Below the pieces are notes generated by a model, which was not told where the DNA came from, made no database searches, and saw nothing but the letters and a program-made list of their open reading frames with translations. From Chloroflexota bacterium (GTDB taxonomy: Bacteria; Chloroflexota; Dormibacteria; Aeolococcales; Aeolococcaceae): a DNA stretch of 64,000 bases. Location of the stretch: the NCBI GenBank assembly GCA_005880985.1, contig VBIQ01000006.1, positions 5,088 through 69,087 on the forward strand, written 5' to 3'. The position numbers were made by a program, and so were the translations under genes. Position 1 is the stretch's first letter. Each line of letters starts with the position of its first letter. Positions 263 to 64,000 of this stretch are shown here, piece after piece.

Positions 263-311
263 ACGGCAGCAGTCGAGTATACCCGCGCTCCCCGCCACCG
301 CCTGACGGCTG

Positions 312-37614: not shown

Positions 37615-37737
37615 CTGCATGGCACAGGCGGGGGAGGGGTCTCCGCAGCGACGGCCCCTCCCCCGCCCAGCGCCAAGCGGCGGGTACTGCTGAGCAACCG
37701 CTTGCAACGCGCGGCCTTGGCGCAGCGAGGCCGGGGG

Positions 37738-39306: not shown

Positions 39307-39709
39307 CAGCCGGCGGGCTGGTCAGCGCGGCCGCGCCCCCGATGCGACGGAGGGGGGTCGAGACCAGCGAGGTTCGCGGGCAAATAAAAAGGGCGCCCCC
39401 AGCAAGCCAGGGACGCCCCGAGAGGGGGGGCAATAGAGGTGTCGCTGTAGGCTGAGAGGATACCGGCTGTATCAACAGGGCGTCAAGCAGCCCACCGGGG
39501 GCGAGCATACCCCGCCGGCACCCGCCGTCGGAGGCGGCCAGATCGGGGCGGTGGCCACCCCAGCAGGCGTCCCCTCCCCGGTGGAGACCAGATCCTCGAC
39601 CGGGGTCCATGTCGCTCGGGGCTCCCGTATACTCCGCTGCTCTCATGATTTGACGGGCACCGGCCGCTCCCTGGCAGCAGTCCGGCGGAGGCGCGGGGGC
39701 CCTGACGCG

Positions 39710-49319: not shown

Positions 49320-50123
49320 TCAGACGGGCTCGCTCCCCGCCCTCCGCCGCCAGGCCGTCACCCCGGCTCCGATCCCGCCGGCGGCCAGCAGCACCAACGC
49401 GATGATCAGTCCGACCGGGGCACCGCCGCCCGTGGAGCCGGGCGTGGCGGCGATCCCCGGCGCCGGAGACGAGCCCGACGGCGAGGCCTGTGCCAGCGGC
49501 TGGTTGGCGCTGCTGGAGGCCGCTGACCCGGTGGATGTCGCGGCAGCGCTGGTCGACGTCCTGGCGACCTGAGCCGGTGACGGACTCGACGGTGCGTGCA
49601 CCGTCGCAGTCGAGGGAGCCGCGCTCGCCGGCGGTCGGGCGGTCGGCGGCGGCGCGGTCGGCGGCGACGGTGGGGGTCCGGTGACGGTGACCGTGCCGTG
49701 CATCGCCGCGTAGCCGTGGATGGTGCAGTAGTAGACGTAGCTTCCCGCCCCGCTGAAGCTGATCGATGCCTGACCACCGGGGTTGACGGTGCCGCTGTCG
49801 AAGCTCGGCGGAGCGGTGCCGGAGCCGCCCCCGGTGCCGCATGCGGAGGTGGTGCAGCGGGTGACGGTGTGAGACACCGCCGAGCGGTTGCTCCAGGTGA
49901 CCGCGCTGCCCGAGCTCACGGCCACGGAGTTGGGGGTGTAGCAGTACATGTTGCCCTGCCCGCCGGCGTTGGGTACACAGCCGTTGCTGCCGGGGCCGTC
50001 GATCGCGACCGACGCCCCGGCGGCCGCCGCGGGGTGCACCGACGGCGGCGCGAGGACCAATCCGACCGTCAGCGCGAGCAGCCCGCCGCTCGCCCGCATG
50101 CGAATGACCAGCACGCGTCGCAT
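49320..50123 (-). CDS. Membrane-anchored cupredoxin (blue-copper) domain protein
   Basis: Signal peptide; cupredoxin ligand pattern H(SHTV)...YYCTIHGYAAMHG (Cys-x2-His-x4-Met). Long P/S/T/A-rich linker and a C-terminal TM helix (GLIIALVLLAAGGIGAGV). Confidence 0.7.
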   Translation of the reverse strand: MRRVLVIRMRASGGLLALTVGLVLAPPSVHPAAAAGASVAIDGPGSNGCVPNAGGQGNMYCYTPNSVAVSSGSAVTWSNRSAVSHTVTRCTTSACGTGGGSGTAPPSFDSGTVNPGGQASISFSGAGSYVYYCTIHGYAAMHGTVTVTGPPPSPPTAPPPTARPPASAAPSTATVHAPSSPSPAQVARTSTSAAATSTGSAASSSANQPLAQASPSGSSPAPGIAATPGSTGGGAPVGLIIALVLLAAGGIGAGVTAWRRRAGSEPV

Positions 50124-50224
50124 CCGGCAGCCACCTCCGTCGATGCGCGGGCACAGAAGAGCGTCCGCCGCCGCCTCTTGGGGATACCCGGCCGCGTTAC
50201 GCCGCGGGAGGCTGGTCCGCCGGC

Positions 50225-50740
50225 TCAGGGCCCGACCGGACCCGGGCCGGCCTCGCCCTCGCCGCCGGCGCGGGTCCAGCTCTCGATCGATTCCCGAGCC
50301 GCCGCCGAGGCGCGCACCCAGTGCGCGGGATCGACCCGCACGAAGAGGCCCCTCGCCTGGGCGTGCACCGTGCCCTCACGCTCCAGCTCGGCTTCCGCCC
50401 ACACCTTGCGGCCCTCCTGGCTGAGGATGCGGGCCGCGGCTCCGAAGTCGAGCTCCAGGGGTACCGGCCGGCGGTAGTCGACCTCCAGCCGCGCGGTCAC
50501 CATCGGCACCCCCAGCCGATAGAGCAGGTAGCCGAGCACGTCGTCGAGGACGGCGGCGACGATGCCCCCGTGGGCCACCCCCGGCCCGCCCTCGTGGCGG
50601 CGCTCAAGACGAACGCTCCCCGCCACGCCCTCCTCGGTCATGTGGCACCGCAGGTGCAGCCCCGACTCGTTGCGCGGTCCGCAGCCGAAGCAGTTGGGAT
50701 GGTGTGGCGGCAGCCGTTCACCGACCTCGAAGAGGCGCAT
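50225..50740 (-). CDS. Hotdog-fold thioesterase (PaaI/4HBT-like)
   Basis: NCFGCGPRN matches the (H/N)CFVCG motif. Central GVAHGGIVAAVLDDVLG hotdog helix. Confidence 0.65.
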   Translation of the reverse strand: MRLFEVGERLPPHHPNCFGCGPRNESGLHLRCHMTEEGVAGSVRLERRHEGGPGVAHGGIVAAVLDDVLGYLLYRLGVPMVTARLEVDYRRPVPLELDFGAAARILSQEGRKVWAEAELEREGTVHAQARGLFVRVDPAHWVRASAAARESIESWTRAGGEGEAGPGPVGP

Positions 50741-50827
50741 CGGCGGCCGATGGTAGGCGCTGGGCCGGCGGCCCCGTCCCCGGCCGAGGCGGCCCCGCGG
50801 CCTGGCTCGCCACAATGGAGTCAGCCC

Positions 50828-51601
50828 ATGTCCAATCCCGACAAGTACGCCACCGCGGTCGTCATCGACCGGCGCGACCTCTGCGACGACCTCTGGGTGG
50901 TTCGGCTGCGCACCGACTGCGAGCTCCCCTTCCGCCCCGGCCAGTACGCGACCCTCGGCCTGGAGCTGAACGGGAAGGTGGTCGAGCGCCCCTACTCGAT
51001 CGTCTCCGCCCCGGAGGAGACGGACGTCGAGATCTTCATCGAGCTGGTGCCCGAGGGCGCGCTGACCTCCCACCTCTACCGTCTCGGCACCGGCGACGAG
51101 ATCCTGGTGCGCCGCAAGACCAAGGGCCTCTTCCTGCGCAACACGCCGGTCGACGGGCAGGCCCATCTCTTCGTCGCCACCGTGACCGGGATCGCTCCCT
51201 TCGTCAGTTTCCTGCGGCGGCTCGCCGCCCGCTGGCGGGCGGGAGAGTGGTCGACCGAGCAACGCATCACCCTGCTACAGGGGGCGAGCCGCTCCTACGA
51301 GTTCGGCTACCTCGACGAGATGCGGGCGATGGCCGCCGAGGTGCCGTGGTTCGAGTACGTGCCCACCGTCAGCCGGCCCTGGGAGGACCCGGAGTGGCGT
51401 GGTGAGACCGGTCGGGTGGAGGACGTGCTGCGCAAGTACGCGGATGCCGCCGGGATCGCTCCGGGATCAGGTGCCGTCTACCTCTGCGGCCACCCGGGGA
51501 TGATCGCGACCGGTCGCGCCATCATGCGCCGCCGCGGTCTCAACGACGACAGCGAGATCTTCGAAGAGCAGTACTGGCCGGACACCAAGGCAGCCTCCTG
51601 A
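50828..51601 (+). CDS. fpr: Ferredoxin-NADP+ reductase (plant-type FNR fold)
   Basis: RPYSIVS FAD-binding motif; NAD(P) binding GTGIAPFVSFL; CGHPGM near the C-terminus. Confidence 0.8.
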   Translation: MSNPDKYATAVVIDRRDLCDDLWVVRLRTDCELPFRPGQYATLGLELNGKVVERPYSIVSAPEETDVEIFIELVPEGALTSHLYRLGTGDEILVRRKTKGLFLRNTPVDGQAHLFVATVTGIAPFVSFLRRLAARWRAGEWSTEQRITLLQGASRSYEFGYLDEMRAMAAEVPWFEYVPTVSRPWEDPEWRGETGRVEDVLRKYADAAGIAPGSGAVYLCGHPGMIATGRAIMRRRGLNDDSEIFEEQYWPDTKAAS

Positions 51602-52592
51602 CCCGGCCCGGCGGCGCGATGAGGGCGAGGACGGCGGCGGCGCCGCCGACGGGAACGGCGGGAAGCGCCAGCGTGGCGAGCTCCGTCCCGGCGCGGGCAT
51701 GCAGCGCGGCGGCGAGGAAGGCGGTGGTGTTCTCCCAGACGTCGTCGGCGTAGGCGACGGCGTGTCGCGACCCCGCCAGCAGCTGCACCTCGACGGGGAC
51801 GCCGTGGTCGCTGAGCCGTCGCGCCATGGCGCGGGCCTGCGATGCCGGGACGATCTCCTCCAGGCTGCCGGCGAGCAGCACCGGCGGCGATCCGTCGACC
51901 ATCTGCTCCAACGGTGACGCGGCCGCATACCGCGGGGAGCAATCGGCGACGTCGCATCCGATGAAGTGGTGAGCTGCGGCGCGCAGCCACGCGGGCGTGG
52001 CGTCGCCGCCGGCGACCATGGTGCGCAGGTCCATCGGACCGGACCAGGAGACGACGCCGGCGACCGGCCCGGCGGTGCGCTCGGGGTGGTGGGTCGCGTC
52101 GAGACCGGTGAGCACGGCGAGGTTGGCCCCCGCCGACTCGCCCAGCAGGGCGACCCGCCGCGGATCGACGTCATAGGACCTCGCATGGTCGCGCAGCCAG
52201 CGCACTCCCGCCTCCACGTCGTCGAGCTCGGCGGGAAACGGTGCCGCAGCGTCGGTGCGATAGTCGATGGTGGCCGCCACCCAGCCGCGCTCCGCCAACC
52301 GCTGCGCCGCAAGATCGAGATAGCCGCGGTCGCCGCCCCGCCAGGCGCCGCCGTGGACGAGGACCACGGCCGGTCTCGGTCCCTCGGCCGCGGCGGGCAC
52401 GAACACGTCGGCGCGCAGGACCACGCCATCGGGGTGAGCGATCATCACCCCCAGCAGGGCTGCGTAGCTCGGTCGCGCCGTCCAGGCGCCGAGGGCCAGC
52501 AGAAGGGCAAGCGAAGCACCGGCCAGGATGGCCCGGCCGCAGCTGACGGCACCGCCGGCGCTGCCGCGACAGCGTCCCCCTCTCTGTGACAC
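51540..52592 (-). CDS. Secreted alpha/beta hydrolase (esterase/lipase, HGG-type)
   Basis: Oxyanion HGGAW, nucleophile GESAGAN, signal-peptide-like N-terminus. The 3' end overlaps convergent fpr by about 60 nt. Start approximate. Confidence 0.7.
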   Translation of the reverse strand: MSQRGGRCRGSAGGAVSCGRAILAGASLALLLALGAWTARPSYAALLGVMIAHPDGVVLRADVFVPAAAEGPRPAVVLVHGGAWRGGDRGYLDLAAQRLAERGWVAATIDYRTDAAAPFPAELDDVEAGVRWLRDHARSYDVDPRRVALLGESAGANLAVLTGLDATHHPERTAGPVAGVVSWSGPMDLRTMVAGGDATPAWLRAAAHHFIGCDVADCSPRYAAASPLEQMVDGSPPVLLAGSLEEIVPASQARAMARRLSDHGVPVEVQLLAGSRHAVAYADDVWENTTAFLAAALHARAGTELATLALPAVPVGGAAAVLALIAPPGRVRRLPWCPASTALRRSRCRR

Positions 52593-52669
52593 GACGACTG
52601 CGACTCTACGGGCCCCCAGCCGAACGTGGCGTATCGCGTCACGGCGTCGCGGCACCGTAGAGTCGGGCA

Positions 52670-54190
52670 ATGCCCGGCGGCCGGCTGACCCCACTGGACA
52701 CCACCTTCCTCAGCCTCGAGGACGGCACCACCGCACACATGCACATCGCCGGCGTCTGCCTCTTCGAGGGGCCCGCACCCGCCTACAGCGAGCTCATCGC
52801 GGCGGTGGAACGGCGTCTGCACCTGGTGCCGCGCTACCGGCAGCGACTCAGCTTCGCCCCCTTCGGGCTCAACCACCCGGAGTGGGTCGACGATCCCTTC
52901 TTCACCCTCGACTACCATGTGCGACTCACCGCCCTGCCTCGTCCGGGGAGCGAGGACCAGCTCAGGAAGCTGGCCGGGCGGATCCTGTCGCAGCGGCTGG
53001 ATCGCGAGCGTCCGCTGTGGGAGATGTGGCTGGTCGAGAGGATCGAGGGCGATCGCTGGGCGCTGATCAGCAAGACCCATCACGCCCTGGTCGACGGCAT
53101 CTCCGGAGTCGACATCGCCACCGTCCTCTTCGATCTCGAGCGCACTCCTGCCGACCAGGGCACGCGTCCTCGCCCCTGGCATGCGGAGCCGTGGCCGAGC
53201 GCCGCGGGAAGCGCGGTGCGGGCGGTGGCCGACCGCGTCAGCTCGCAGGCCCAGGCCGGCCGCGCCGCGGTCGAGCTGATCCGCCGGCCTGACGACCTCC
53301 GCGCCGCGATCGCCAACGCGGCGGGCGCGGTGCTGAGCTCGGTGCGTCCCGGGCCGCCGTCGATCTACAACGTGCACATCGGGCCGCATCGCCGCTTCAC
53401 CTGGGTGCGCAGCTCGCTGGCGGAGGTGAAGGCGATCAAGAACGCGCTCGGCGGCACCGTCAACGACGTCGTGCTCGCCGCGGTCACCGGTGCGTTGGGA
53501 CGTCACATGCGCCGTCGCGGGGAGCGGGTCAGCGGGGTCGAGCTGGTGGCGATGGTCCCGGTCAGCGTGCGCGCCGAGATCGAGCGCGGTGCCCTCGGCA
53601 ACCGGGTCTCGTCGTACTTCGCGCCGCTTCCGGTCGGGGTCACCGATCCGGTCAAGCGGCTTCGCCGGGTGTCGGGCGCGATGCGCGGCCTCAAGGAGAG
53701 CGGCAACGCGGTGGGAGCGGAGATCCTCACCCAGCTCGGAGGCCTCGCCCCGGCGACGATCATCGCCCAGGCGTCGCGGCTGGTGGCCGGCTCGCGCGTC
53801 TTCAACCTGACCATCACCAACGTCCCCGGCCCGCAGTTGCCGCTCTACATGGCCGGACGCCAGCTCCTCGATGTCTTCCCGATGGTGCCGCTCGCTCCCG
53901 ACCATGCTCTGGGCATCGCCATCATCAGCTACCACGGCACCCTCGACTTCGGGCTCGTCGGCGACTACGACGCCATGGCCGACGTCGAGGATCTCGCCGG
54001 CGACCTCGCCGAGTCCCTCGAGGAGCTGGCGGTGGCGGCGGGGGTGCATGGCGGGGACGCAGCCACCTCGCGGCGCGGCCGTGGCCGCGCGGCGCCGACG
54101 GCGAACGGCTCCGGCGATGGGTCCCGTGGCAACGGTCGCACCCGTGCGGCCGGAGGAGCACGCCGCGGCGCGGGCCGCGGCGCCGGCTGA
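52670..54190 (+). CDS. Wax ester synthase / diacylglycerol O-acyltransferase (WS/DGAT)
   Basis: HHALVDG active-site motif in the N-terminal domain. 506 aa with a Gly/Arg-rich tail. Confidence 0.85.
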   Translation: MPGGRLTPLDTTFLSLEDGTTAHMHIAGVCLFEGPAPAYSELIAAVERRLHLVPRYRQRLSFAPFGLNHPEWVDDPFFTLDYHVRLTALPRPGSEDQLRKLAGRILSQRLDRERPLWEMWLVERIEGDRWALISKTHHALVDGISGVDIATVLFDLERTPADQGTRPRPWHAEPWPSAAGSAVRAVADRVSSQAQAGRAAVELIRRPDDLRAAIANAAGAVLSSVRPGPPSIYNVHIGPHRRFTWVRSSLAEVKAIKNALGGTVNDVVLAAVTGALGRHMRRRGERVSGVELVAMVPVSVRAEIERGALGNRVSSYFAPLPVGVTDPVKRLRRVSGAMRGLKESGNAVGAEILTQLGGLAPATIIAQASRLVAGSRVFNLTITNVPGPQLPLYMAGRQLLDVFPMVPLAPDHALGIAIISYHGTLDFGLVGDYDAMADVEDLAGDLAESLEELAVAAGVHGGDAATSRRGRGRAAPTANGSGDGSRGNGRTRAAGGARRGAGRGAG

Positions 54191-54201
54191 GGCCGATCGA
54201 G

Positions 54202-54927
<726 letters not shown>

Positions 54928-54997
54928 GAGGGAGCGCAGCGGTGCGCCCCGCTGAGGCGCAGGGGCGGCCTCCGTCCGGGGAGACCGCCCCTGCTGC

Positions 54998-55501
54998 TCA
55001 TGGGGTGAGGGTGTTGATCGCCGACTGGACCGGAGCCGGCGGGGTGATGCCCATCACCGTCGTGGTCTTCCGGCGCGGAGCGCGGCTGGTCTTCCGGGCA
55101 GCCGCCGGCTTCTTCGCCCGCTTCGGCGCGGTCTTGCGCGGCGCCGCGACCCTGGAGACGGCACGCTTGGCGGTGGTCCGCTTGGCCGTGGTGCGCTTCG
55201 CGCTCCGCTTCGCCGAGCGCTTGGTCGCGCGCTTCGCCGTCGTCTTCTTCCGACCACCGCGGGCCGCGGTGGTCCGCTGCCCGGCCAGCTGCCGGCGGAG
55301 CCGCTCGTTCTCGCTGGCGAGCCTGCGGAGCTCGGCCCCGAGGATCCGCAGCGCCTGATCGGCTGCTCCTCCCAGCGCGCGGCCCGCGGGCGTCTTGGCA
55401 GCTCTGCGGCCCACCGCCCTCGCCGCACGCCTGACCGTCCCAGTCGCGCGCGCCGCCGCCTTGCGTGCGGTCGACTTGCGCCGCCGTGTCACTCGTGCCA
55501 C
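54998..55501 (-). CDS. Lys/Arg/Ala-rich basic protein with a central coiled-coil and histone-H1-like (AKRTTAKR) repeats
   Basis: GTG start preceded by GGGAGG. 168 aa and strongly basic. LRILGAELRRLASENERLRRQL coiled coil. Function unknown. Confidence 0.5.
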   Translation of the reverse strand: MARVTRRRKSTARKAAARATGTVRRAARAVGRRAAKTPAGRALGGAADQALRILGAELRRLASENERLRRQLAGQRTTAARGGRKKTTAKRATKRSAKRSAKRTTAKRTTAKRAVSRVAAPRKTAPKRAKKPAAARKTSRAPRRKTTTVMGITPPAPVQSAINTLTP

Positions 55502-55726
55502 TGCACTACCTCCCTGGGGTGCGGAGCACTCCGCACCAAAACGCGCATTACAGCACACGTGTGACAGAAACACACGCGCGCGAATGGCTCAGCGCGCGGC
55601 TGAGCTGGTGGTCGGGGCGATGCGGCGCGAGGCGTTGTGCGTCGTGCTGCCGCAGACCAACATCTGGGGCTCGGGCGTTCCGGTGCGCACCGTCGTCGCT
55701 GCGCGGCCCGGAAGCGAGGGCTGACG

Positions 55727-55820
55727 GTGGCGGGAAGGGAGGGATTCGAACCCTCGGAGGAGCTTGACACCCCTCACCCGCTTAGCAGGCGGGCGCTTTC
55801 GGCCACTCAGCCACCTCCCC
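55727..55820 (-). tRNA. tRNA-Ser (anticodon GCT)
   Basis: Reverse complement GGGGAGGTGGCTGAGTGG...anticodon stem CCCGC/GCGGG with loop CTGCTAA, long variable arm, GGTTCGAATCC T-loop, CCA end. Confidence 0.9.
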
Positions 55821-55913
55821 ACCAGGGTCGATCGAGTATACCGGCGCGCGCTCCGCGTTCTACCCATGCCGTGCTCGCTCGGCACCGTCGTGCGACACTC
55901 TCGCCGCCGGCGC

Positions 55914-56003
55914 GGAGGCATGCCGGAGCGGTTGATCGGAGCGGTCTTGAAAACCGCAAGGGCCGTCAAGCCCTCGGGGGTTCGAATCCCTCTGCCTCCG
56001 CCA
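55914..56003 (+). tRNA. tRNA-Ser (anticodon TGA)
   Basis: GGAGGCATGCCGGAGCGG...anticodon stem GCGGT/ACCGC with loop CTTGAAA, long variable arm, GGTTCGAATCC, CCA end. Confidence 0.9.
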
Positions 56004-56092
56004 GCGCCCCTTGATCGGCTCGCTGTTACCGAGGCGCTGCGGGCTCGGCGCCGCACCGGCCCTCTCCGATGTCGAGAAACCAACCAGTGTCC

Positions 56093-56123
56093 TTGACATC
56101 TCGCGGCGTCCCGTCCGTATACT
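56093..56123 (+). promoter_or_regulatory. Near-consensus sigma-70/SigA-type promoter (TTGACA ... TATACT)
   Basis: TTGACA at 56093-56098 and TATACT at 56118-56123, with a 19-nt spacer (or GTATAC at an 18-nt spacer). It drives a short transcript carrying a 5' hairpin and a mini-ORF. Confidence 0.5.
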
Positions 56124-56201
56124 GCGGCGGTCCTCGAAGGGAGGACCTCGGGAGGGACACATTTGCTCGCACATCGACCGCGTCGCACCGTCCGCTCGTG
56201 G

Positions 56202-56282
56202 ATGGCCGGACGAGTCGGCACGGCCTCTCTCACCCTGACGGCCGTCCTCTTCGTCGTCGGCGCCGCCATCGCCGCCCACTGA
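56202..56282 (+). CDS. Candidate 26-aa hydrophobic micro-protein (MAGRVGTASLTLTAVLFVVGAAIAAH)
   Basis: ATG about 80 nt downstream of the promoter above. Single TM-like helix. No convincing SD sequence. Speculative. Confidence 0.25.
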   Translation: MAGRVGTASLTLTAVLFVVGAAIAAH

Positions 56283-56683
56283 GACCGCTCAGCTCGCCGC
56301 CGGTCTGCTAGCGCCGGGTGGGGGAGGCGTCGTCGCTGCGGAGACCCGCGGTTCCGACGCCTTTGGCGTCGGCCCGCTGCGCTCGGCTCGCTCAGCTCGC
56401 CTGCGCGACGGTCTCCTCCGCGACGACGCCTCCCCCACCTCAGCCACAAGCGACAACGTGCTCAGCACCCCTCGCCCACGCGAAGCGCCGGTTCCGAAGC
56501 GCCGCTCCGCGATGAGTCGCGCGCCTCGCATCATGAGGGCGGAGGGGGCACGTCGCGGAGGAGGCCGTCGCGGCGTGGCGTGCAGCCGCGTCCGCGCCGA
56601 GCGAGTCGACGCCGGTAGGCGTCGGCCGCGTGCCGCCGCAGCGACGTGCCCCCTCCGCCCCCGGAACCGGCGCAGCCCCCGCT

Positions 56684-57868
56684 TCAGCCGAGAGCCGACC
56701 GCGGCGCGGAGGACACCAAGCCGGAGACGATCTCCATGGCCTCCTCGAGCCGCTCGCGCGGTGCCGTGAAGCAGATGCGGAGATGGCTCGGCATCCCGAA
56801 ACCGACGCCCGGCGCCACCAGTACCCGGCGGCGAGCGAGCGTCTGCACGAAGTCGAGGGTGTCGTCCCAGGGCGAGCGGGCCCAGAGGTAGAGCGCTCCG
56901 TCGGGGACGCCGAGGTCGAGGCCCGCCTCGCGGGCGCAGGCGACGGCGTGGTCGCGGCGCTCGACGTAGGGGAGGGTGTCGACCTGCCACACCGGCAGGT
57001 GCAGCAGCATCCGCTGCATGGTGGCGGGAGCGTTGACGAACCCGATCGCCCGCATGCACACCTCGAGAGCGCGGCCGATCTCCGGGGTCGCCAGCGCGGG
57101 ATGCAGCGCCAGGTAGCCGATGCGCTCGCCGGCGAGACCGAGATCCTTGGAGAACGATCGCGCCAGCACCGTGCGCGGGTGGAGTGCGAACGGGTCGACG
57201 CGACGCGCCGGAGGGTAGACCAGCCGGTGGTACACCTCGTCGACGATCAGCAGCACCGGGCCGCCGGCAACCGGCGCATGCTCCTCCAGCACCTCCGCCA
57301 GCGCCGCCATCTCCGATTCGTCGACCACATGACCACTGGGGTTGCAGGGGGTGTTGAGCACCAGGGCGCGGGTGCGCGGGGTGAGGGCGGCGGCAATGGC
57401 CTCGAGATCGAGCCCGCCGTCGTCACTCGGTGCCGCCGGGACGAAGGTCGCTCCGATGGTGTTGCAGTACGCCGGGTACTCACCGAAGTAGGGCGTGATG
57501 CCGACCACCTCGTCACCCACATCGACGAAGGCACGCAGCGCCAGGACCACCGCGGCACCGGCGCCGCCGGTCAGGATGATGGATTCGCGCTCCAGCCCCT
57601 CGACCCCCATGTGCGCGGCGACCCGCTCGCGCACCTCGGGAAAGCCGAGGTTGGGCATGTAGCCGAATCGCGCCCGACCGCGTTCGCTGGCCGCCGCCAG
57701 CAGCGCATCCCTGACCTCGGGGAGTGGCTCATCGAGGGGCTGTCCGAGAGCGAGGTCGACGACGGCGTCGTCGCCGAACTCGGCGCGCAACCGCTGTCCC
57801 TGGGCGAACATGCGACGCACCCAGCCTCCGGCCGCGACCTGGGCGCTGGCCCAGCGGGAGAGCGTCAA
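56684..57868 (-). CDS. PLP-dependent aminotransferase class I (aspartate/aromatic aminotransferase-like)
   Basis: Motifs NTPCNPSGHV and SFSKDLGLAGERIGY (PLP lysine). Its start overlaps the hmgA stop (ATGA). Confidence 0.85.
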   Translation of the reverse strand: MTLSRWASAQVAAGGWVRRMFAQGQRLRAEFGDDAVVDLALGQPLDEPLPEVRDALLAAASERGRARFGYMPNLGFPEVRERVAAHMGVEGLERESIILTGGAGAAVVLALRAFVDVGDEVVGITPYFGEYPAYCNTIGATFVPAAPSDDGGLDLEAIAAALTPRTRALVLNTPCNPSGHVVDESEMAALAEVLEEHAPVAGGPVLLIVDEVYHRLVYPPARRVDPFALHPRTVLARSFSKDLGLAGERIGYLALHPALATPEIGRALEVCMRAIGFVNAPATMQRMLLHLPVWQVDTLPYVERRDHAVACAREAGLDLGVPDGALYLWARSPWDDTLDFVQTLARRRVLVAPGVGFGMPSHLRICFTAPRERLEEAMEIVSGLVSSAPRSALG

Positions 57869-59022
57869 CTGCTCGCGGACCAGGAGTAGGGGTAGCAGGT
57901 GTCGAGAACCTGTCGTGCCGCCTGGGTGCGGTGGAGCGGGCGGAAGGTGTCGATCATCACCGCCAGCTCGCTGGTCTCGCGGGCGCCGGTGAGGGCTGCT
58001 TCGAGGGCGCCCGGTTGCGGTCCGTGGGGGACACCGCCGACGTGGTGGGTCAGCGATCCCTCGCGCACCCCGCGCCGGGCGGAGTAGTCACCCCCGCAGT
58101 AGTACATCACCTCGTCGGAGTCGAGGTTGCTGTGATGATAGGGGAGGGCCACCGCCTCGGGATCCCAGTCGATCTTTCGCGGCACGAAGTTGCAGATCAC
58201 CAGCCCGGGCGCCTGGAACACCTGGTGCGTCGGCGGGGGAACATGGAAGCGTCCCGCCCGCGGCTCGAAGTCGTGGATCGAGAAGGCGCAGGGGTACACC
58301 GTCCCGTCCCAGCCGATGACGTCGAAGGGGTGGTGGTCGAGGCAGTAGCGGGTGATCCGGCCGCCGCGCTTCAGCATCACCTCCGCCGGACCGTCGGCCT
58401 GCTCGAGCTCCTCGGGAGCGCGGATGTCCCGCTCCGAGTACGGGGCGGCCTCGAGCAGCTGCCCGTTGCGGGAGCGATATCGCTCCGGCGAATCGACCAG
58501 CCCGGTGCACTCCAGCACCAGGACCCGGGTCGCCTGCGGCGCGGCGAGCTCGATGCGGTGCACCGTGCCCCTGGGGATGACCAGGTAGTCACCCTCCGCG
58601 ATCGGCAGGCGGCCGAACTGAGAGTGGAGGGTGGCCGCGCCGCGGTGGAAGAAGAGCACCTCGTCGGCGGACCCGTTGACGAACAGGGTCTCCTGCTGCC
58701 GCTCCGGGACAGCGACGCCGACGCGCACGTCGTCGTTGACCAGCAGCCAGCCACGCCCGCTGACGATGTCGCCCTCCGGCTGCATCCGCCAGGCCTCGAG
58801 GTGGGCATGGGTGTGGACCTGCTCCAACTCCATCGCCGCCCGGTCGTCGGCGCCGGGGACGACGTCGTGCGCCGCCTCCGGCATGCCCAGGTGATAGAGC
58901 AGCGAGGACGGACCGGTGAATCCCTCGCGACCAAAGAGCTCCTCGAAGACCGGCCTGCCGCCACGCTCGATCCGCATGTGCCGCTTGCGGGGAAGCTCAC
59001 CCAGGCGTCGGTACGACCGCAT
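57865..59022 (-). CDS. hmgA: Homogentisate 1,2-dioxygenase
   Basis: Cupin-type HGD with conserved Fe-binding His/Glu region (HHSNLDSDEVMYY...HVGGVPHGPQPG). Confidence 0.85.
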   Translation of the reverse strand: MRSYRRLGELPRKRHMRIERGGRPVFEELFGREGFTGPSSLLYHLGMPEAAHDVVPGADDRAAMELEQVHTHAHLEAWRMQPEGDIVSGRGWLLVNDDVRVGVAVPERQQETLFVNGSADEVLFFHRGAATLHSQFGRLPIAEGDYLVIPRGTVHRIELAAPQATRVLVLECTGLVDSPERYRSRNGQLLEAAPYSERDIRAPEELEQADGPAEVMLKRGGRITRYCLDHHPFDVIGWDGTVYPCAFSIHDFEPRAGRFHVPPPTHQVFQAPGLVICNFVPRKIDWDPEAVALPYHHSNLDSDEVMYYCGGDYSARRGVREGSLTHHVGGVPHGPQPGALEAALTGARETSELAVMIDTFRPLHRTQAARQVLDTCYPYSWSASS

Positions 59023-59024
59023 GG

Positions 59025-60143
59025 CTAGAGGTTTCCGCGCGCGGCCTGCTCGCGTTCGATGGCCTCGAAGAGCGCCTTGAAGTTGCCCTTGCCGAAGCCC
59101 TTCGCCCCCTTGCGCTGGATCACCTCGAAGAACAGCGTGGGACGGTCCGCGACGGGGCGGGTGAAGATCTGCAGCAGGTAGCCACCGTCCTCGAAGTCGA
59201 CCAGGACCGACAGCTCGCGAAGCCGGTCGAGATCCTCGCTGACGCCGTGCTCGCGCACCCTGGTGGCGATCTCCTCGTAGTACGCCGACGGAGCGGTCAG
59301 GAACTCGACCCCGCGCTCGCGCATGGCGAAGACGGACTCGACGATGTCGTCGGTGTGCAGGGCGATGTGCTGCACCCCGGCGCCGCCGTAGTAGTCGAGG
59401 TACTCCTGGATCTGCGACGCCCGCAGACCCTCGGCGGGTTCGTTGATGGGGAAGGTGATCCGGGTGCGCTGATCGCGGGTCACCTTGGAGCGGAGCGCGC
59501 TGTATCGGGTGGCGATGTCCTGCTCGTCGAACTCCTGGAAGACGTGAAAGCCGAAGACCTCGCGGTAGAAGTCCACCCAGGAGTCCATGGCACCGAGCTC
59601 GACGTTGCCGACGGTGTGGTCGATGTGGCGCAGTCCCACGCCCCCGCCGGGGCGGCGCTCGGCGCGGTACCCGGGCCAGTGCGGGCCGGAGTACTCGTCG
59701 CGCTCGACGAAGCGATGGACGGTGTCGCCGAAGGTGGCGATGCCCGCGTAGCGGAGGGCACCGTGCGAGTCCTCAACCGTGCGCGGCTCCTCGACCGCAC
59801 GGGCGCCGCGGGCGAGCGCCCCCTCGAAGGCGGCGGTGGCGTCCTCGACCCGGAGCGCGATGGTGCGGACGCCGTCTCCGTGGCGGTGGACGTGGGCCGC
59901 CAGCTCGCCTTCGGGGTGCAGCGGCGCGGTCAGTACCAGCCGCACCCGTCCCTGCTCGAGAACGTACGAGGCCCGGTCGCGCAGCCCGGTCTCCGGTCCC
60001 GCGTAGGCGATCACGTCGAAGCCGAAGGTGCTGCCGTAGTAGTGGGCCGCCTGGCGGGCGTTGCCCACCCACAGCTCGACGTGGTCGGTCCCGGTGAGCA
60101 CCGGCGGCGCCGCCGCCACCGCCCGTTCGATCACCTCAGCCAC
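59025..60143 (-). CDS. hppD: 4-hydroxyphenylpyruvate dioxygenase
   Basis: Two VOC modules with Fe ligands (HIALRV...HIDHTVGNV...QHIALHTDDI, then a C-terminal FFEVIQR Glu). GTG start overlaps the upstream gene by 8 nt. Confidence 0.85.
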   Translation of the reverse strand: MAEVIERAVAAAPPVLTGTDHVELWVGNARQAAHYYGSTFGFDVIAYAGPETGLRDRASYVLEQGRVRLVLTAPLHPEGELAAHVHRHGDGVRTIALRVEDATAAFEGALARGARAVEEPRTVEDSHGALRYAGIATFGDTVHRFVERDEYSGPHWPGYRAERRPGGGVGLRHIDHTVGNVELGAMDSWVDFYREVFGFHVFQEFDEQDIATRYSALRSKVTRDQRTRITFPINEPAEGLRASQIQEYLDYYGGAGVQHIALHTDDIVESVFAMRERGVEFLTAPSAYYEEIATRVREHGVSEDLDRLRELSVLVDFEDGGYLLQIFTRPVADRPTLFFEVIQRKGAKGFGKGNFKALFEAIEREQAARGNL

Positions 60144-61011
60144 CGCTGGGCTGCAGCCTCCGCTGGTTGAGCCCGTCCCAGAACACCTTGACCCCATCGA
60201 GCATCGCCGCCGCGCCCTCGAGGAACTTGGTCTCGTTGAAGCCGGGACGCTCGAACGCCTCGTGCAGCTCGTCCAGGGTGTGCGCCGCGTGCTGGTCCTC
60301 GACCCGATCGTGCCAGGTGAAGAAGGCCAATCTCAGCTCCGGGCACTCGCGGTCGCGGAACCGGTCCAGCCCGCTGATCAGCTGCTTCCAGAATCCGGCG
60401 GCGGCCCAGTTCTCGACCGCGAAGCTCGCGCCCTCGGCGATGTCGGGCTCCTCGCTGCCGTAGATGCGGGCCAGCTCGTCGCAGAAGTGCAGCGTGCTCG
60501 GCCAGCCGAAGCGCCGCTTGCCGATGTCCTGGAAGGAGAGCCCCAGCGGTTCGGCGACCTTGGTCAGCCACTCGAAGTGAGCGGCATTGAATCGATAGAC
60601 ACCGCCGTCGACGGTGCCCTCGGTGCTCACCAGATCGGGGTCACCCATGCGGTCCTTGGCGTCGTCGTCGACGGGAACGTCGTGCACCGGCGAGGTGCGA
60701 CCGGAGCGGAAGACGACGCCCAGCTCGTTGACCAGGATCTCCTTGCTCTCGCGCGCCTGCTCGATGCTCGGCGCGTTGATGGTCTTGAGGAGCTGAGCGA
60801 CGATGAAGAGGTTGCTGAACACCGAGAACTGCTGGATGAGGTCACGCACCTGGGCCCGCGTCGCCTCGCCCTTCTCGAACCAGACGCAGTAGCGGTTGTC
60901 GGTGACGACCGGGTGCTGCATCACGGTGCGCCGGACCTGCTCGAAGAAGCGGTCCCACCGCTCCGGCACCGAGGGAGCGGCGGCTTCGCTGATCAGTGTG
61001 GCCATGGACAC
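60136..61011 (-). CDS. Heme-oxygenase-like fold, iron-containing redox enzyme family protein (TenA/PqqC/CADD-like)
   Basis: 291 aa, all-helical composition. First gene of the hppD-hmgA-aminotransferase operon. Family-level call only. Confidence 0.45.
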   Translation of the reverse strand: MSMATLISEAAAPSVPERWDRFFEQVRRTVMQHPVVTDNRYCVWFEKGEATRAQVRDLIQQFSVFSNLFIVAQLLKTINAPSIEQARESKEILVNELGVVFRSGRTSPVHDVPVDDDAKDRMGDPDLVSTEGTVDGGVYRFNAAHFEWLTKVAEPLGLSFQDIGKRRFGWPSTLHFCDELARIYGSEEPDIAEGASFAVENWAAAGFWKQLISGLDRFRDRECPELRLAFFTWHDRVEDQHAAHTLDELHEAFERPGFNETKFLEGAAAMLDGVKVFWDGLNQRRLQPSGG

Positions 61012-61233
61012 GACACCTCCGACTGCCCGAGCTCCGCGGGGTTGGAAGAAGCCTCGACCATTCTCCCAGGCGTGCGCACATTCGTCCAGGCAGTGGCAGG
61101 ATCGCTAGACGAATACTCCGATTCTGGCTATCCTTGCTGGACAAATGGACCGGACGACGGGGCTTGACGCCCTCCCGGCTGGACGCCCTCAGCGGCAGGC
61201 CGCGCCGCGGCCGCCCCGGGGCTGACGCCCGCC

Positions 61234-61773
61234 GTGGCTCGCCGCCCCGACCTCGACGACGTTGACCGTCCGGACAGGGCGCCGCCGGCAGCGGCTGCCG
61301 CGGCCGCTGGCGCCCGCGCCGCCGTCGGCATCGACGCCGTCGACCGGCGCCTGCTCGAGGTCCTGCGCGACGACGGCCGGCTGTCGGTGGCGACGCTCGC
61401 CGAGCGCGCCGGCATCTCCCGGGCCGGCGCCTACAGCCGCCTCGAACGCCTCCGTGCGGATGGCGTCATCAGCGGCTTCAGCGCCCGCGTCGACAGCGCC
61501 CGCATCGGTCTGTCGATCGTCGCCGTCATCCTCATCTCCGGCCGCCAGCCGGCCTGGCGCTCGCTGCGCGCGCAGCTCGCCGCCATGCCCGAGGTCGAGT
61601 ACTGCGCCTTCACCAGCGGCGAGTACGACGCGCTGATCGTGGTCCGGGTCGCCGACGTCGAGACGCTGCGCGATGTCATCCTCGAACGGCTGCAGTCGAT
61701 GGCCGCGGTTCGCGCCACCCAGACGATCTTCGTGCTCGACGAGGTGGTGCGCCGTCCCTACGTACTGCCATAG
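61234..61773 (+). CDS. Lrp/AsnC family transcriptional regulator
   Basis: HTH (LDAVDRRLLEVLRDDGRLSVATLAERAGISRAGAYSRLERL) plus a C-terminal RAM domain. Divergent from the tyrosine-catabolism operon. The true start is probably internal to the listed ORF. Confidence 0.8.
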   Translation: MARRPDLDDVDRPDRAPPAAAAAAAGARAAVGIDAVDRRLLEVLRDDGRLSVATLAERAGISRAGAYSRLERLRADGVISGFSARVDSARIGLSIVAVILISGRQPAWRSLRAQLAAMPEVEYCAFTSGEYDALIVVRVADVETLRDVILERLQSMAAVRATQTIFVLDEVVRRPYVLP

Positions 61774-61802
61774 CGGCGTGCCGCGCCGCGGCGCCCCGCC
61801 GC

Positions 61803-62687
61803 TCAGTACTCCTGCAGGTACGAGCAGTTGTCGGCGAAGGAGAGCGGTTCGAAGCCGAACTGGCGCGGGACCGCGTCGATGCGGGTGATGTTGTTCTTCT
61901 TCAGCAGGCGCAGCTGCCCGGGTGTCACCGGCGGATTGGCAAGCAACCGGTCGAAGAGGACGGCGATCGGCAGCATCGCCGCGACCGGCACGTGCACCTT
62001 GCGCCGGCGCAGACCGAGCTCCGCCCTGATGATGTCGATGATCTCCTCGTAGGTGAGGTGATCGGGACCGCCGACCTCGTGGATGTCGTTGGACGACCCC
62101 CGGGCGATGCAGTCGACGACGATCCGTGAGAGGTCGGCCACGGCGAGCGGCTGGAAGAGGGCGCGACCGTTGCCGACGATGGGGATCACCGGGTTGAGCC
62201 GGATCAGCCTGGTCAGGGTGGTGAAGAAGCCGTCGCCGGGCCCGAAGAGCAGGCTGGGACGGAGCACGGTGTGGGGCACCGACGACCCGCGCACCGCCAT
62301 CTCCCCAGCCCACTTGCTGGCCAGGTACCCGTAGTAGGGATCGGGATCGACGCCGATGGCGCTGAGGTGGACGATGTGCCCGATCCCCGCCTGCCGCGCG
62401 GCCTGGGCGACGTTCTCGGCGCCGGCACGGTTGACCCGGTCGAAGGTCTGCGCACCGCGCTCGCGGATGACGGCGACGAGGTGCAGCACGGCGTCGCAAC
62501 CGCGCAGCGCGTCGAGCAGGCCGTCACCGGTGGTGACGTCGACGCGGAGGAAGTCGACGCCCTGAGGTCGTGGCCCGCGGCGCCGGCCCCGGCCGAGAAG
62601 CCGCAGCTGATGACCGGCCTGGCGCAGGGCGCGGCCGGTGTGCAGGCCGACGAATCCGGTGCCCCCGGTGACGGCGATCCGGGCCAC
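61803..62687 (-). CDS. NAD(P)H-binding atypical SDR (NmrA / NDUFA9-like)
   Basis: GTG start preceded by GGGAGGA. IAVTGGTGFVG Rossmann motif and a YxxxK-type YGYLASK. Confidence 0.75.
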   Translation of the reverse strand: MARIAVTGGTGFVGLHTGRALRQAGHQLRLLGRGRRRGPRPQGVDFLRVDVTTGDGLLDALRGCDAVLHLVAVIRERGAQTFDRVNRAGAENVAQAARQAGIGHIVHLSAIGVDPDPYYGYLASKWAGEMAVRGSSVPHTVLRPSLLFGPGDGFFTTLTRLIRLNPVIPIVGNGRALFQPLAVADLSRIVVDCIARGSSNDIHEVGGPDHLTYEEIIDIIRAELGLRRRKVHVPVAAMLPIAVLFDRLLANPPVTPGQLRLLKKNNITRIDAVPRQFGFEPLSFADNCSYLQEY

Positions 62688-62745
62688 GTGCGTCCTCCCT
62701 CGCGGCGGGCCCCTTGTGGGGCGCCGGCGCAAGGGTACGCAACCC

Positions 62746-62775
62746 TTGCGGCTTCGAACGCATGTTCGTTATACT
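62746..62775 (+). promoter_or_regulatory. SOS-regulated promoter with a Cheo-type LexA box in the spacer
   Basis: -35 TTGCGG (62746-62751) and -10 TATACT (62770-62775). The spacer holds TCGAACGCATGTTCG (62754-62768), which matches CGAAC-N4-GTTCG. Confidence 0.7.
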
Positions 62776-62873
62776 GATCCTCCCGCTCCACGCTCCCTCG
62801 ACGTCCTCATCGGGGCAGGGAGGTCGATACCAGGTGAGCTCCGCACGGCGGCGTGCCGCGCGGAAGGAGCGAA

Positions 62874-63740
62874 GTGTCCGGGCCCATCCTCATGGACGAT
62901 CCGTCCTCGCTGATCGAGGCCGTCACCCTGGTGCGGCGGCGGTTTGGGGCAGCGGCACTGCGGCGCGGCGGTGATCCGCTTCCCGAGCCCGCCTGGGTCA
63001 CCGGAGTGCCCGCGCTCGATCAGGGACTCGGCCAGGGCGGCCTCGTCCGCGGGCGGCTGACGGTGCTCGCCGGCGCCCGGTCACCGGTGACGGGGCGGCT
63101 GACGCTGCTGCAGGCGCTGGCGGCGGTGGCCAGCCGCACCATGCCGGTGGTCTACGTCGACCTGGTGGGGACGCTCGACCCCGGCTTCCTCGCCGACCTG
63201 GGGGCCGACCTCGACGCCTGCCTGGTGGTCCGTCCTCCCGGCGGCGATCTGGCGCCGGGATTGGTGATGGGATATTCCCTGGTCGCCGCCGGTGTGCCCT
63301 GGCTGGCGGTCGCCCTGCCCGTCCATCCCCAGCCGGCGTGGAGGCGGGCGGAACCGGCGCTGGCCGCGCTGGTGGCCACTGTCGAGGGGAGGCGGGCGGT
63401 GGCCTGTGTCGCCGCCCCGGCGCCGCTCGCCGCCCCTCTCGCCTATGCCTCGTCGCTGACGGTGACCTGCCGGTCACTGGGATGGCAGGAGGAGCACGAC
63501 GACGTGGTCGGGCTGCGCGTGGGTCTGGAGGTGGTGAAGAGCCGGGTGGGGACGCCGGGAAGTCAGGCCGGGGTGCTGCTGCGCTACCCGCGTCCGCACG
63601 GGACCGGCGAGGTGGTCGGCTTCCCGACGGTGGTCGGTCTGCCCGCCTCCCCCGACGGTGCGGGGGTCGCGGCCACCCTCGGACCGGAGGTCACCCCTGC
63701 CGTCGCGCCCGGTGGCGGTCCCGCCGTCGCCGCCGGGTAG
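62874..63740 (+). CDS. imuA': ImuA'-like inactive RecA-fold protein (SOS mutasome component)
   Basis: RecA-core-like GVPALDQGLGQGGLVRGRLTVLAG, but a degenerate P-loop (ARSPVTGRLTL instead of GxxxxGKT). VVYVDLVGTLDP strand follows. GTG start preceded by GGAAGGAG. Confidence 0.7.
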   Translation: MSGPILMDDPSSLIEAVTLVRRRFGAAALRRGGDPLPEPAWVTGVPALDQGLGQGGLVRGRLTVLAGARSPVTGRLTLLQALAAVASRTMPVVYVDLVGTLDPGFLADLGADLDACLVVRPPGGDLAPGLVMGYSLVAAGVPWLAVALPVHPQPAWRRAEPALAALVATVEGRRAVACVAAPAPLAAPLAYASSLTVTCRSLGWQEEHDDVVGLRVGLEVVKSRVGTPGSQAGVLLRYPRPHGTGEVVGFPTVVGLPASPDGAGVAATLGPEVTPAVAPGGGPAVAAG

Positions 63741-63767
63741 CCGTCGGTTGCCCGAGCCTCGCTGCCG

Positions 63768-64000
63768 CCATGCCCCGCATCCTCTGCGCCCGCTTCCCCC
63801 ACCTCGGCCTGGTGGTGGCCTGGCGGCGGTATCCCGAGCTGCGCGGCGAACCCGTCGCCATCGCCTCCGACACCACGGCGGGCGCCGTCGCCCTGGCCGC
63901 CTCGGAGGCCGCCCGGGCAGCCGGAGTCCACCCGGGGCAGCCGCTCCGCCAGGTCCGGCACCTCTGTCCCGGGGCTGCCGTGCTTCCCTTCGACGCCACC
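63768..64000 (+). CDS. imuB: ImuB-like Y-family polymerase homologue (5' part only, truncated by window end)
   Basis: N-terminus MPRILCARFPHLGLVVAWRRYPELRGEPVAI matches the UmuC/DinB-like start of ImuB proteins. Confidence 0.6.

Follow-up and report, generated by a model that had tools for sequence, protein, structure and literature searches.

Does the intergenic stretch downstream of a tRNA-Ser gene in a Chloroflexota bacterium carry a gene of its own, and if so, what does that gene encode? The question arises from contig VBIQ01000006.1 (assembly GCA_005880985.1), of which we analysed a 64-kb stretch, positions 5,088 to 69,087, hereafter the window. A 680-nt intergenic stretch, running from tRNA-Ser(TGA) to the 3′ end of a convergent class I/II aminotransferase gene, holds a sigma-70-type promoter followed by a small open reading frame (sORF) with one predicted transmembrane (TM) helix. 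An earlier note on this DNA had listed a micro-protein, a type-I-toxin-like peptide, a leader peptide and a structured small RNA as candidate descriptions. Our analysis favors the first of these, and most likely the locus is best labeled an unannotated, lineage-restricted (Dormibacterota-like) small membrane-protein gene. To the fuller reading, in which the sORF forms a monocistronic gene of its own, encoding a small membrane protein whose cellular role is read from analogy, we assign a probability of roughly 0.62.

Among contigs that carry members of the aminotransferase cluster, two groups were informative. L055 and L063 match the window almost exactly, and L053, L054, L057, and L058 belong to a second lineage with ~89-92% nucleotide identity to it. 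Conservation was assessed by comparing the window with L053 and with L057, the latter having ~89% identity and covering the tRNA 3′ end through the aminotransferase. The proposed gene consists of the following features:

56070-56092, plus strand: A-rich block TGTCGAGAAACCAACCAGTGTCC, upstream of the −35 hexamer, with 4/23 substitutions relative to L057
56093-56098, plus strand: −35 hexamer TTGACA, a 6/6 match to consensus, unchanged in L057
56118-56123, plus strand: −10 hexamer TATACT, a 5/6 match to TATAAT, unchanged in L057
56129-56147, plus strand: 7-bp hairpin GGTCCTC/GAAGG/GAGGACC with arms at 56129-35 and 56141-47 and a 5-nt loop, present in the minimum free energy (MFE) and centroid folds
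56150-56157, plus strand: Shine-Dalgarno (SD)-like GGGAGGGA, 5 nt before TTG 56163, left unpaired by the centroid fold, and conserved in both L053 and L057
56163-56282, plus strand: sORF of 39 codons plus stop, MLAHRPRRTVRSWMAGRVGTASLTLTAVLFVVGAAIAAH, counted from the TTG; an alternative start is ATG 56202 (26 aa)

The distribution of changes along the locus, which carries most of the argument, is markedly uneven:

tRNA 3′ end: 0/36 changes
56004-56069, from the tRNA to the promoter region: 25/66 changes, plus indels
sORF: 6/120 changes
first 34 nt 3′ of the stop codon: 8/34 changes, plus indels
aminotransferase 3′ end: 10/300 changes

All six of the sORF substitutions relative to L053/L057 fall in third codon positions and are synonymous, and this is true in the sORF frame only; the remaining five frames would take 2-6 amino-acid changes. 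The earlier note had named synonymous-site bias as the check on coding potential, and the single pairwise comparison at hand shows such a bias, as a 6/6 synonymous outcome has P ~8e-4 under random substitution. One of the six changes lies in the 13-codon extension upstream of the ATG. No indels occur within the ORF, and indels are found on both sides of it. Read from this substitution pattern, the promoter hexamers, the SD sequence, and the coding frame are shown to be under purifying selection.

Codon usage provides a further line of evidence. Using a codon log-odds model trained on 19 long ORFs of the window with high G+C at third positions (GC3), we found that the sORF frame scores best of the six (+5.8 bits, versus −6 to −45 for the others). 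Only 0.4% of out-of-frame 39-codon windows reach the sORF score, which itself falls within the lowest 3.4% of in-frame windows. G+C by codon position is 0.72/0.62/0.82, the order GC3 > GC1 > GC2 being the usual one for this genome, and the JGI pipeline called a partial gene at the sORF position on L053. The micro-protein option thus draws on synonymous-only substitutions, a codon score that exceeds those of the other five frames, and the combination of an SD sequence with a start codon.

The 26-codon ATG ORF that had first drawn attention, 56202-56282 (MAGRVGTASLTLTAVLFVVGAAIAAH), was correctly described, but the same frame is already open 13 codons further upstream, to TTG 56163, and would then encode 39 aa. 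The TTG has a conserved, strong SD sequence at the proper distance that is unpaired in the centroid fold; the ATG lacks an SD sequence and is located in a small predicted stem. We favor the TTG start on these grounds, although the choice is not settled. The N-terminal tail of the peptide is basic, and a single TM helix is predicted at residues ~20-38; the mean Kyte-Doolittle hydropathy is +2.04 for residues 20-38, compared to −0.57 for residues 1-19. Taken together with the positive-inside rule, the Arg-rich tail and the hydropathy profile would place the N-terminal tail in the cytoplasm and residues ~20-38 across the membrane.

The promoter hexamers are separated by 19 nt (56099-56117), a length that is the same in L057 and lies outside the 17 ± 1 nt typical of sigma-70-type promoters. 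Because of this spacer, a standard promoter scanner allowing 16-18 nt misses the site, and it reported no promoter in 50000-64000. TTGACA-19nt-TATACT had been ranked among the best sigma-70-like matches in the window; TTGACA-N15-20-TANNNT occurs a single time when both strands of the window are searched, at the conserved site described here, and at least one match arises in 7/100 dinucleotide shuffles. Relative to L057 the two hexamers have 0/12 changes and the spacer 6/19 with its length kept. Unchanged hexamers flanking a diverged spacer of fixed length are the footprint expected from a working promoter, and the promoter reading is therefore supported. The A-rich block at 56070-56092 is possibly an UP-element-like or operator region.

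Motifs of the form TANNNT are few in this region; only two occur in 55800-56720 on either strand, namely the −10 hexamer of the sORF and a TATACT located 15 nt upstream of tRNA-Ser(GCT). The exact hexamer TATACT has 5 copies in the window versus ~2.7 expected from base composition by our estimate. Beyond that of the sORF, these are:

276-281, minus strand: upstream of tRNA-Arg, at 13-15 nt as for tRNA-Ser(GCT)
39628-39633, plus strand: upstream of greA (identified by its GreA-like translation)
55835-55840, minus strand: upstream of tRNA-Ser(GCT), retained in L002 and L004 and nearly so in L010 and L011, which are loci from more distant Dormibacterota metagenome-assembled genomes (MAGs)
62770-62775, plus strand: as TTGCGG-18 nt-TATACT, ahead of a gene that starts near 62874

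The placement of the copies, all five in promoter-like positions, suggests that TATACT may be a preferred −10 hexamer of highly expressed genes in this lineage and, given that it is common to tRNA and greA promoters, also suggests that the sORF is strongly transcribed.

The leader between promoter and sORF had been described as opening with a perfect hairpin, and the stem is indeed present, but its loop has 5 nt rather than 6. The hairpin would start no more than 1-2 nt from the predicted 5′ end of the transcript; in L057 its stem is unchanged and its loop has one A->G change (1/19). Both of the GGAGG-like motifs noted previously are present as well: one, GGGAGGA, lies within the 3′ arm of the hairpin, and the other, GGGAGGGA at 56150-57, is free. 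The SD region has 0/14 changes relative to L057, and one 1-nt indel lies ahead of it. As a bare pattern the hairpin is no rarer than chance, with 106 perfect 7-bp hairpins in the window compared to 62-107 in Markov simulations, and the leader together with the ORF folds no better than shuffled sequences (z = +0.42). Since the hairpin and the fold are unremarkable as patterns, the case rests on conservation and context.

These features can be assembled into a plausible scheme for expression. A sigma-70-type promoter (TTGACA, 19 nt, TATACT) would start the transcript at ~56130, and the first ~19 nt of the transcript would form a stable stem-loop that, by analogy with ompA, may slow mRNA decay that depends on the 5′ end. 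The free GGGAGGGA would then draw ribosomes to TTG 56163 or, less likely, to ATG 56202, yielding a product of 39 aa (or 26 aa) that exposes an Arg-rich N-terminal tail to the cytoplasm and crosses the membrane with one C-terminal TM helix (N-in/C-out). The transcript would end, or be protected at its 3′ end, at a hairpin following the stop codon and/or at the palindromes lying between the gene and the convergent aminotransferase operon. The peptide would most likely serve as an accessory or modulator of a membrane complex, an analogy drawn from other small single-pass membrane proteins of bacteria.

The analogy is to a class of proteins that are often missed by annotation and often lineage-restricted. 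In E. coli, the small single-pass inner-membrane proteins AcrZ, MgrB, MgtS, KdpF, and CydX have 26-50 aa, one TM helix, and their own SD sequences. The sORF product resembles them in size, in hydropathy, and in its absence from protein collections; it differs in having no sequence similarity to them and no operon partner or neighboring target gene, and in that its basic segment is N-terminal and its TM helix reaches the C-terminus. The statement in the earlier note that no annotation class explains the locus is accurate for known families, but the locus does fit the generic class of small single-pass membrane proteins. The comparison of the leader with the ompA 5′ untranslated region (UTR), whose hairpin is one of the 5′-terminal stem-loops that protect mRNA from 5′-end-dependent decay, is similarly partial: both have a stable hairpin at or within 1-2 nt of the (here predicted) 5′ end followed by an accessible SD sequence, but in the sORF the transcription start is a prediction, the hairpin is no rarer than chance, and its stem is unchanged and shows no covariation.

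Several observations weigh against this interpretation. The selection test consists of one pairwise comparison with six substitutions, as there are two haplotypes in all. An exhaustive phmmer search against 1.84 billion representative proteins gave 0 matches, and the sORF is missing from the ENA gene calls for L055, a contig nearly identical to the window. In more distant Dormibacterota with a nearby tRNA-Ser pair, the peptide was not found 3′ of tRNA-Ser(TGA), where the stretch is unrelated. Neighboring genes include no operon partner that would point to a function for the peptide. For sigma-70 promoters of the E. coli type, 19 nt is not the optimal spacer length. Finally, the 13 extra N-terminal codons are atypical (−7.4 bits, compared to +13.3 for the 26 codons from the ATG), which leaves the TTG start uncertain.

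Other searches bear on how widely the peptide is distributed. There was no peptide match in Pfam, NCBIfam, or PADLOC at E ≤ 1-10, and PHROGs and PDB gave non-significant matches only (E 0.09 to 1.8). A word-index protein search with the peptide padded to 40 aa found no homologue, and an exact look-up found neither the 39-aa nor the 26-aa form in the protein collection. At the DNA level, a wobble-tolerant pattern of codons 13-21 recovered one identical copy (L063) and three chance matches from metagenome contigs and no match from viral contigs, and a search of metagenome contigs for a 61-aa in-frame extension returned 600 pattern matches, of which 0 were confirmed. A tblastn search of the window and the collected loci revealed no paralogue of the peptide, and the gene is single-copy. 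The lineage is thinly sampled: the closest species-level relatives of the aminotransferase in a search of GTDB genomes have 57-65% identity and come from Candidatus Dormibacterota and "Chloroflexota" MAGs, its 90% cluster includes a protein from a MAG listed by NCBI as Chloroflexi, and its protein identities drop from 98% to ≤67% with none between.

If the locus is a small membrane-protein gene, its interest is that such proteins are systematically overlooked, and that neither this peptide nor a relative of it is found in collections of billions of proteins. It would provide a concrete, testable example with a promoter, an SD sequence, and a 5′ hairpin from Dormibacterota-like soil bacteria, a phylum without a genetic system, together with a first hint of what strong promoters look like in the lineage (a TATACT −10, found also at tRNA genes and greA) that could aid the prediction of promoters and sORFs in MAGs of related bacteria. 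The gene is of a fairly ordinary overlooked kind, and the impact is modest, given that the distribution looks narrow and the role is assigned by analogy.

The alternatives turn in part on the region 3′ of the sORF, where a short hairpin is followed by palindromic elements that recur elsewhere in the window:

56283-56305, plus strand: short hairpin GACCG...CGGTC directly 3′ of the stop codon, predicted by folding
56317-56439, no strand assigned: palindromic element A, inverted relative to B and C, with 30-nt arms and nested hairpins; 5/120 changes relative to L057
56537-56660, no strand assigned: palindromic element B, of the same family as A; 1/124 changes relative to L053, L054, L057, and L058
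11768-11895: palindromic element C, a full copy between two co-directional ORFs
37620-37675: stem-only mini copy of the palindrome family

The earlier note had the ORF ending just before a block of nested palindromes, and the stop codon does lie 35 nt ahead of the first of them (~125 nt). In L053 and L057 the arms of the post-stop hairpin read GGCCGG...CCGGCC, with A->G and T->C changes that keep the pairing, and the loop diverges. The hairpin, which has no U-tract and was negative in a terminator scan, is possibly a terminator or 3′ stabilizer. The palindrome region folds far better than shuffled sequences (z = −8), and the family consensus is a long outer stem around two hairpins, and the differences between the arms of individual copies are compensatory. 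The elements are far better conserved than the spacer that separates A from B (16/97 changes), which implies either function or homogenization between copies. A covariance model built on the family finds the window copies and their orthologues and 0 copies in ~108 kb from 12 more distant Dormibacterota/Chloroflexota loci. The palindromes have no Rfam match. Viral matches to the palindrome core pattern were discarded, having no covariance-model score at those positions. Reading the flanks revealed no target-site duplication around the palindromes, and no genome-wide transposase search was made.

The palindromes resemble ERIC/IRU, Correia, MITE, and REP repeats in being ~125-nt imperfect intergenic palindromes, dispersed in both orientations between convergent or tandem genes. 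They differ in that elements A and B are unrelated to those repeats in sequence, that the 64 kb contain no more than 3 full copies and 1 mini copy, and that element B is far more conserved than its flanks. On contig L060, the sequence past the point matching window ~56304 is unrelated, and a different gene (a 92-aa partial call, 1907-2203) replaces the sORF/tRNA block; the repeats and the sORF are thus separable. We treat the palindromes as a putative separate ERIC/MITE-like family of dispersed repeats that happens to bound the sORF. On the same contig the aminotransferase ORF (335-1816) was called as 493 aa ending at 1816, and so runs through element B into element A.

One may postulate a bolder scenario in which the sORF represents a new Dormibacterota-lineage family of highly expressed membrane micro-proteins, or a type I toxin without homologues, with a promoter of the grade found at tRNA genes, and in which the new ~125-nt three-way-junction palindromes bounding it function as structured RNA, perhaps by terminating transcription in both directions or by insulating convergent units from each other. 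We consider this composite scenario unlikely.

A more specific alternative, and one that we judge quite improbable, is that the sORF encodes the toxin of a type I toxin-antitoxin system, a membrane-damaging peptide whose translation is normally blocked by antisense RNA or by mRNA structure. What the locus has in common with Hok, Ldr, TisB, Ibs, ShoB, Fst, and BsrG is a small hydrophobic TM-helix peptide, a strong stand-alone promoter, and an SD-like sequence inside a structured 5′ end, here the 5′ stem-loop; moreover, base pairing between the SD region and the 3′ end of the ORF appears in the MFE fold, and the gene is adjacent to a tRNA in a region that is variable between genomes. That long-range pairing is missing from the centroid fold, however, and the region is no more structured than shuffled sequences, such that sequestration of the SD is not robust. 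A motif scan, which is blind to non-canonical promoters, found no minus-strand TANNNT in 55841-56720 from which an antisense RNA might be transcribed, neither the window nor the collected loci contain a paralogue of the single-copy gene, there is no match in Pfam, NCBIfam, or PADLOC, and the charge is N-terminal. The toxin-like description in the earlier note thus fits the small TM peptide and is otherwise unsupported, with no antisense −10-like motif, paralogue, or family match found.

A non-coding or dual-function RNA with an incidental ORF, transcribed from the conserved promoter and perhaps extending into the palindromes, appears very unlikely. Conservation of the promoter would be expected under this scenario, and apart from the A->G change in the hairpin loop the 5′ UTR is free of substitutions, as are the first 32 nt of the ORF; the 3′ flank, moreover, is both extremely structured (z = −8) and conserved. 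Constraint on RNA only, however, does not predict that all six substitutions should be codon-periodic and synonymous, and the leader and ORF have a z-score of +0.42 on folding. The palindromes that account for the structured flank are dispersed repeats that are also found elsewhere without the sORF. The Rfam/Infernal scan proposed to detect a known RNA family gave none beyond tRNAs: across the whole window at the gathering score, and across 55500-56800 at E ≤ 10, Rfam 15 returned tRNAs and noise; at this locus it matched only the two tRNAs, with nothing but noise at E > 8 in 56004-56800. The structured small RNA that had been suggested is disfavored by the combination of these results.

It is also conceivable, though again with little probability, that the sORF is the truncated 5′ remnant of a secreted-protein gene of which the promoter, the SD sequence, and a signal-peptide-like N-terminus are left. 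The layout of the peptide, as judged from its sequence, is like that of a long Sec/Tat-type signal peptide, with a basic n-region, a hydrophobic h-region, and a C-terminal A-I-A-A; the ORF ends abruptly beside inserted repeats; and the locus is rearranged among relatives, with a breakpoint at ~56304 in L060 and the aminotransferase across the tRNA pair in L002, L004, L010, and L011. Decay of such a remnant predicts non-synonymous changes and indels, but 0/6 substitutions are non-synonymous and no indels were seen. The stop codon lies 35 nt ahead of element A and so was not created by the repeat, a conserved hairpin follows the stop, and no full-length homologue was found in the word-index and phmmer searches.

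That the sORF is a leader peptide or attenuator for a downstream gene, as its short ORF behind a strong promoter and ahead of stem-loops might suggest and as had been proposed, is extremely unlikely, given that no co-directional gene follows (the next gene, the aminotransferase at 56684-57820(-), is convergent), the ORF has no run of regulatory codons, and the stem-loops are part of a dispersed repeat family.

The genes on either side of the small membrane-protein gene provide its context, and the divergent tRNA-Ser pair previously noted beside the ORF is present:

55728-55820, minus strand: tRNA-Ser(GCT), divergent partner of tRNA-Ser(TGA), with its own TATACT at 55840-55835; context only
55914-56003, plus strand: tRNA-Ser(TGA), 90 nt upstream of the −35 hexamer of the sORF; context only
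56684-57820, minus strand: class I/II aminotransferase gene, the next gene 3′ of the sORF, convergent with it

Sub-threshold Rfam matches to 'Plastid-psbl-rps4' at 55731-55785(+) and 55963-56000(-) are the antisense strands of the tRNA-Ser genes and do not represent a separate feature. A long antisense ORF at 55589-56449(-), whose third codon positions coincide with those of the sORF, is judged spurious: it crosses both tRNA genes and takes 2 amino-acid changes, and 1-nt indels in the L057 5′ UTR rule out a conserved long antisense ORF. Between a cyclophilin lipoprotein gene and tRNA-Ser(GCT) lie two called genes without a family, 54942-55358(+) and 55584-55724(+) (138 aa and 46 aa on L055), which may be orphans or over-calls; a homologue search with the 138-aa ORF returned the self match only.

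Within the window, which has a G+C content of 71%, an operon-like run on the minus strand at 56684-60200(-) (134-6137 on L055) comprises the aminotransferase, a cupin protein resembling homogentisate dioxygenase, and a protein of the glyoxalase fold; an AsnC-type regulator is close by, and the run looks like an aromatic amino-acid (tyrosine/homogentisate) degradation cluster. The divergent tRNA-Ser(GCT)/tRNA-Ser(TGA) pair (55728-56003) recurs near the aminotransferase in distant Dormibacterota MAGs, at 7708-7983 in L002, 4330-4610 in L011, 6687-6781 in L004, and 6969-7061 in L010. In all four of these loci the aminotransferase is found on the GCT side of the pair, and in the window it is found on the TGA side; the locus is rearranged around the tRNA-Ser pair.

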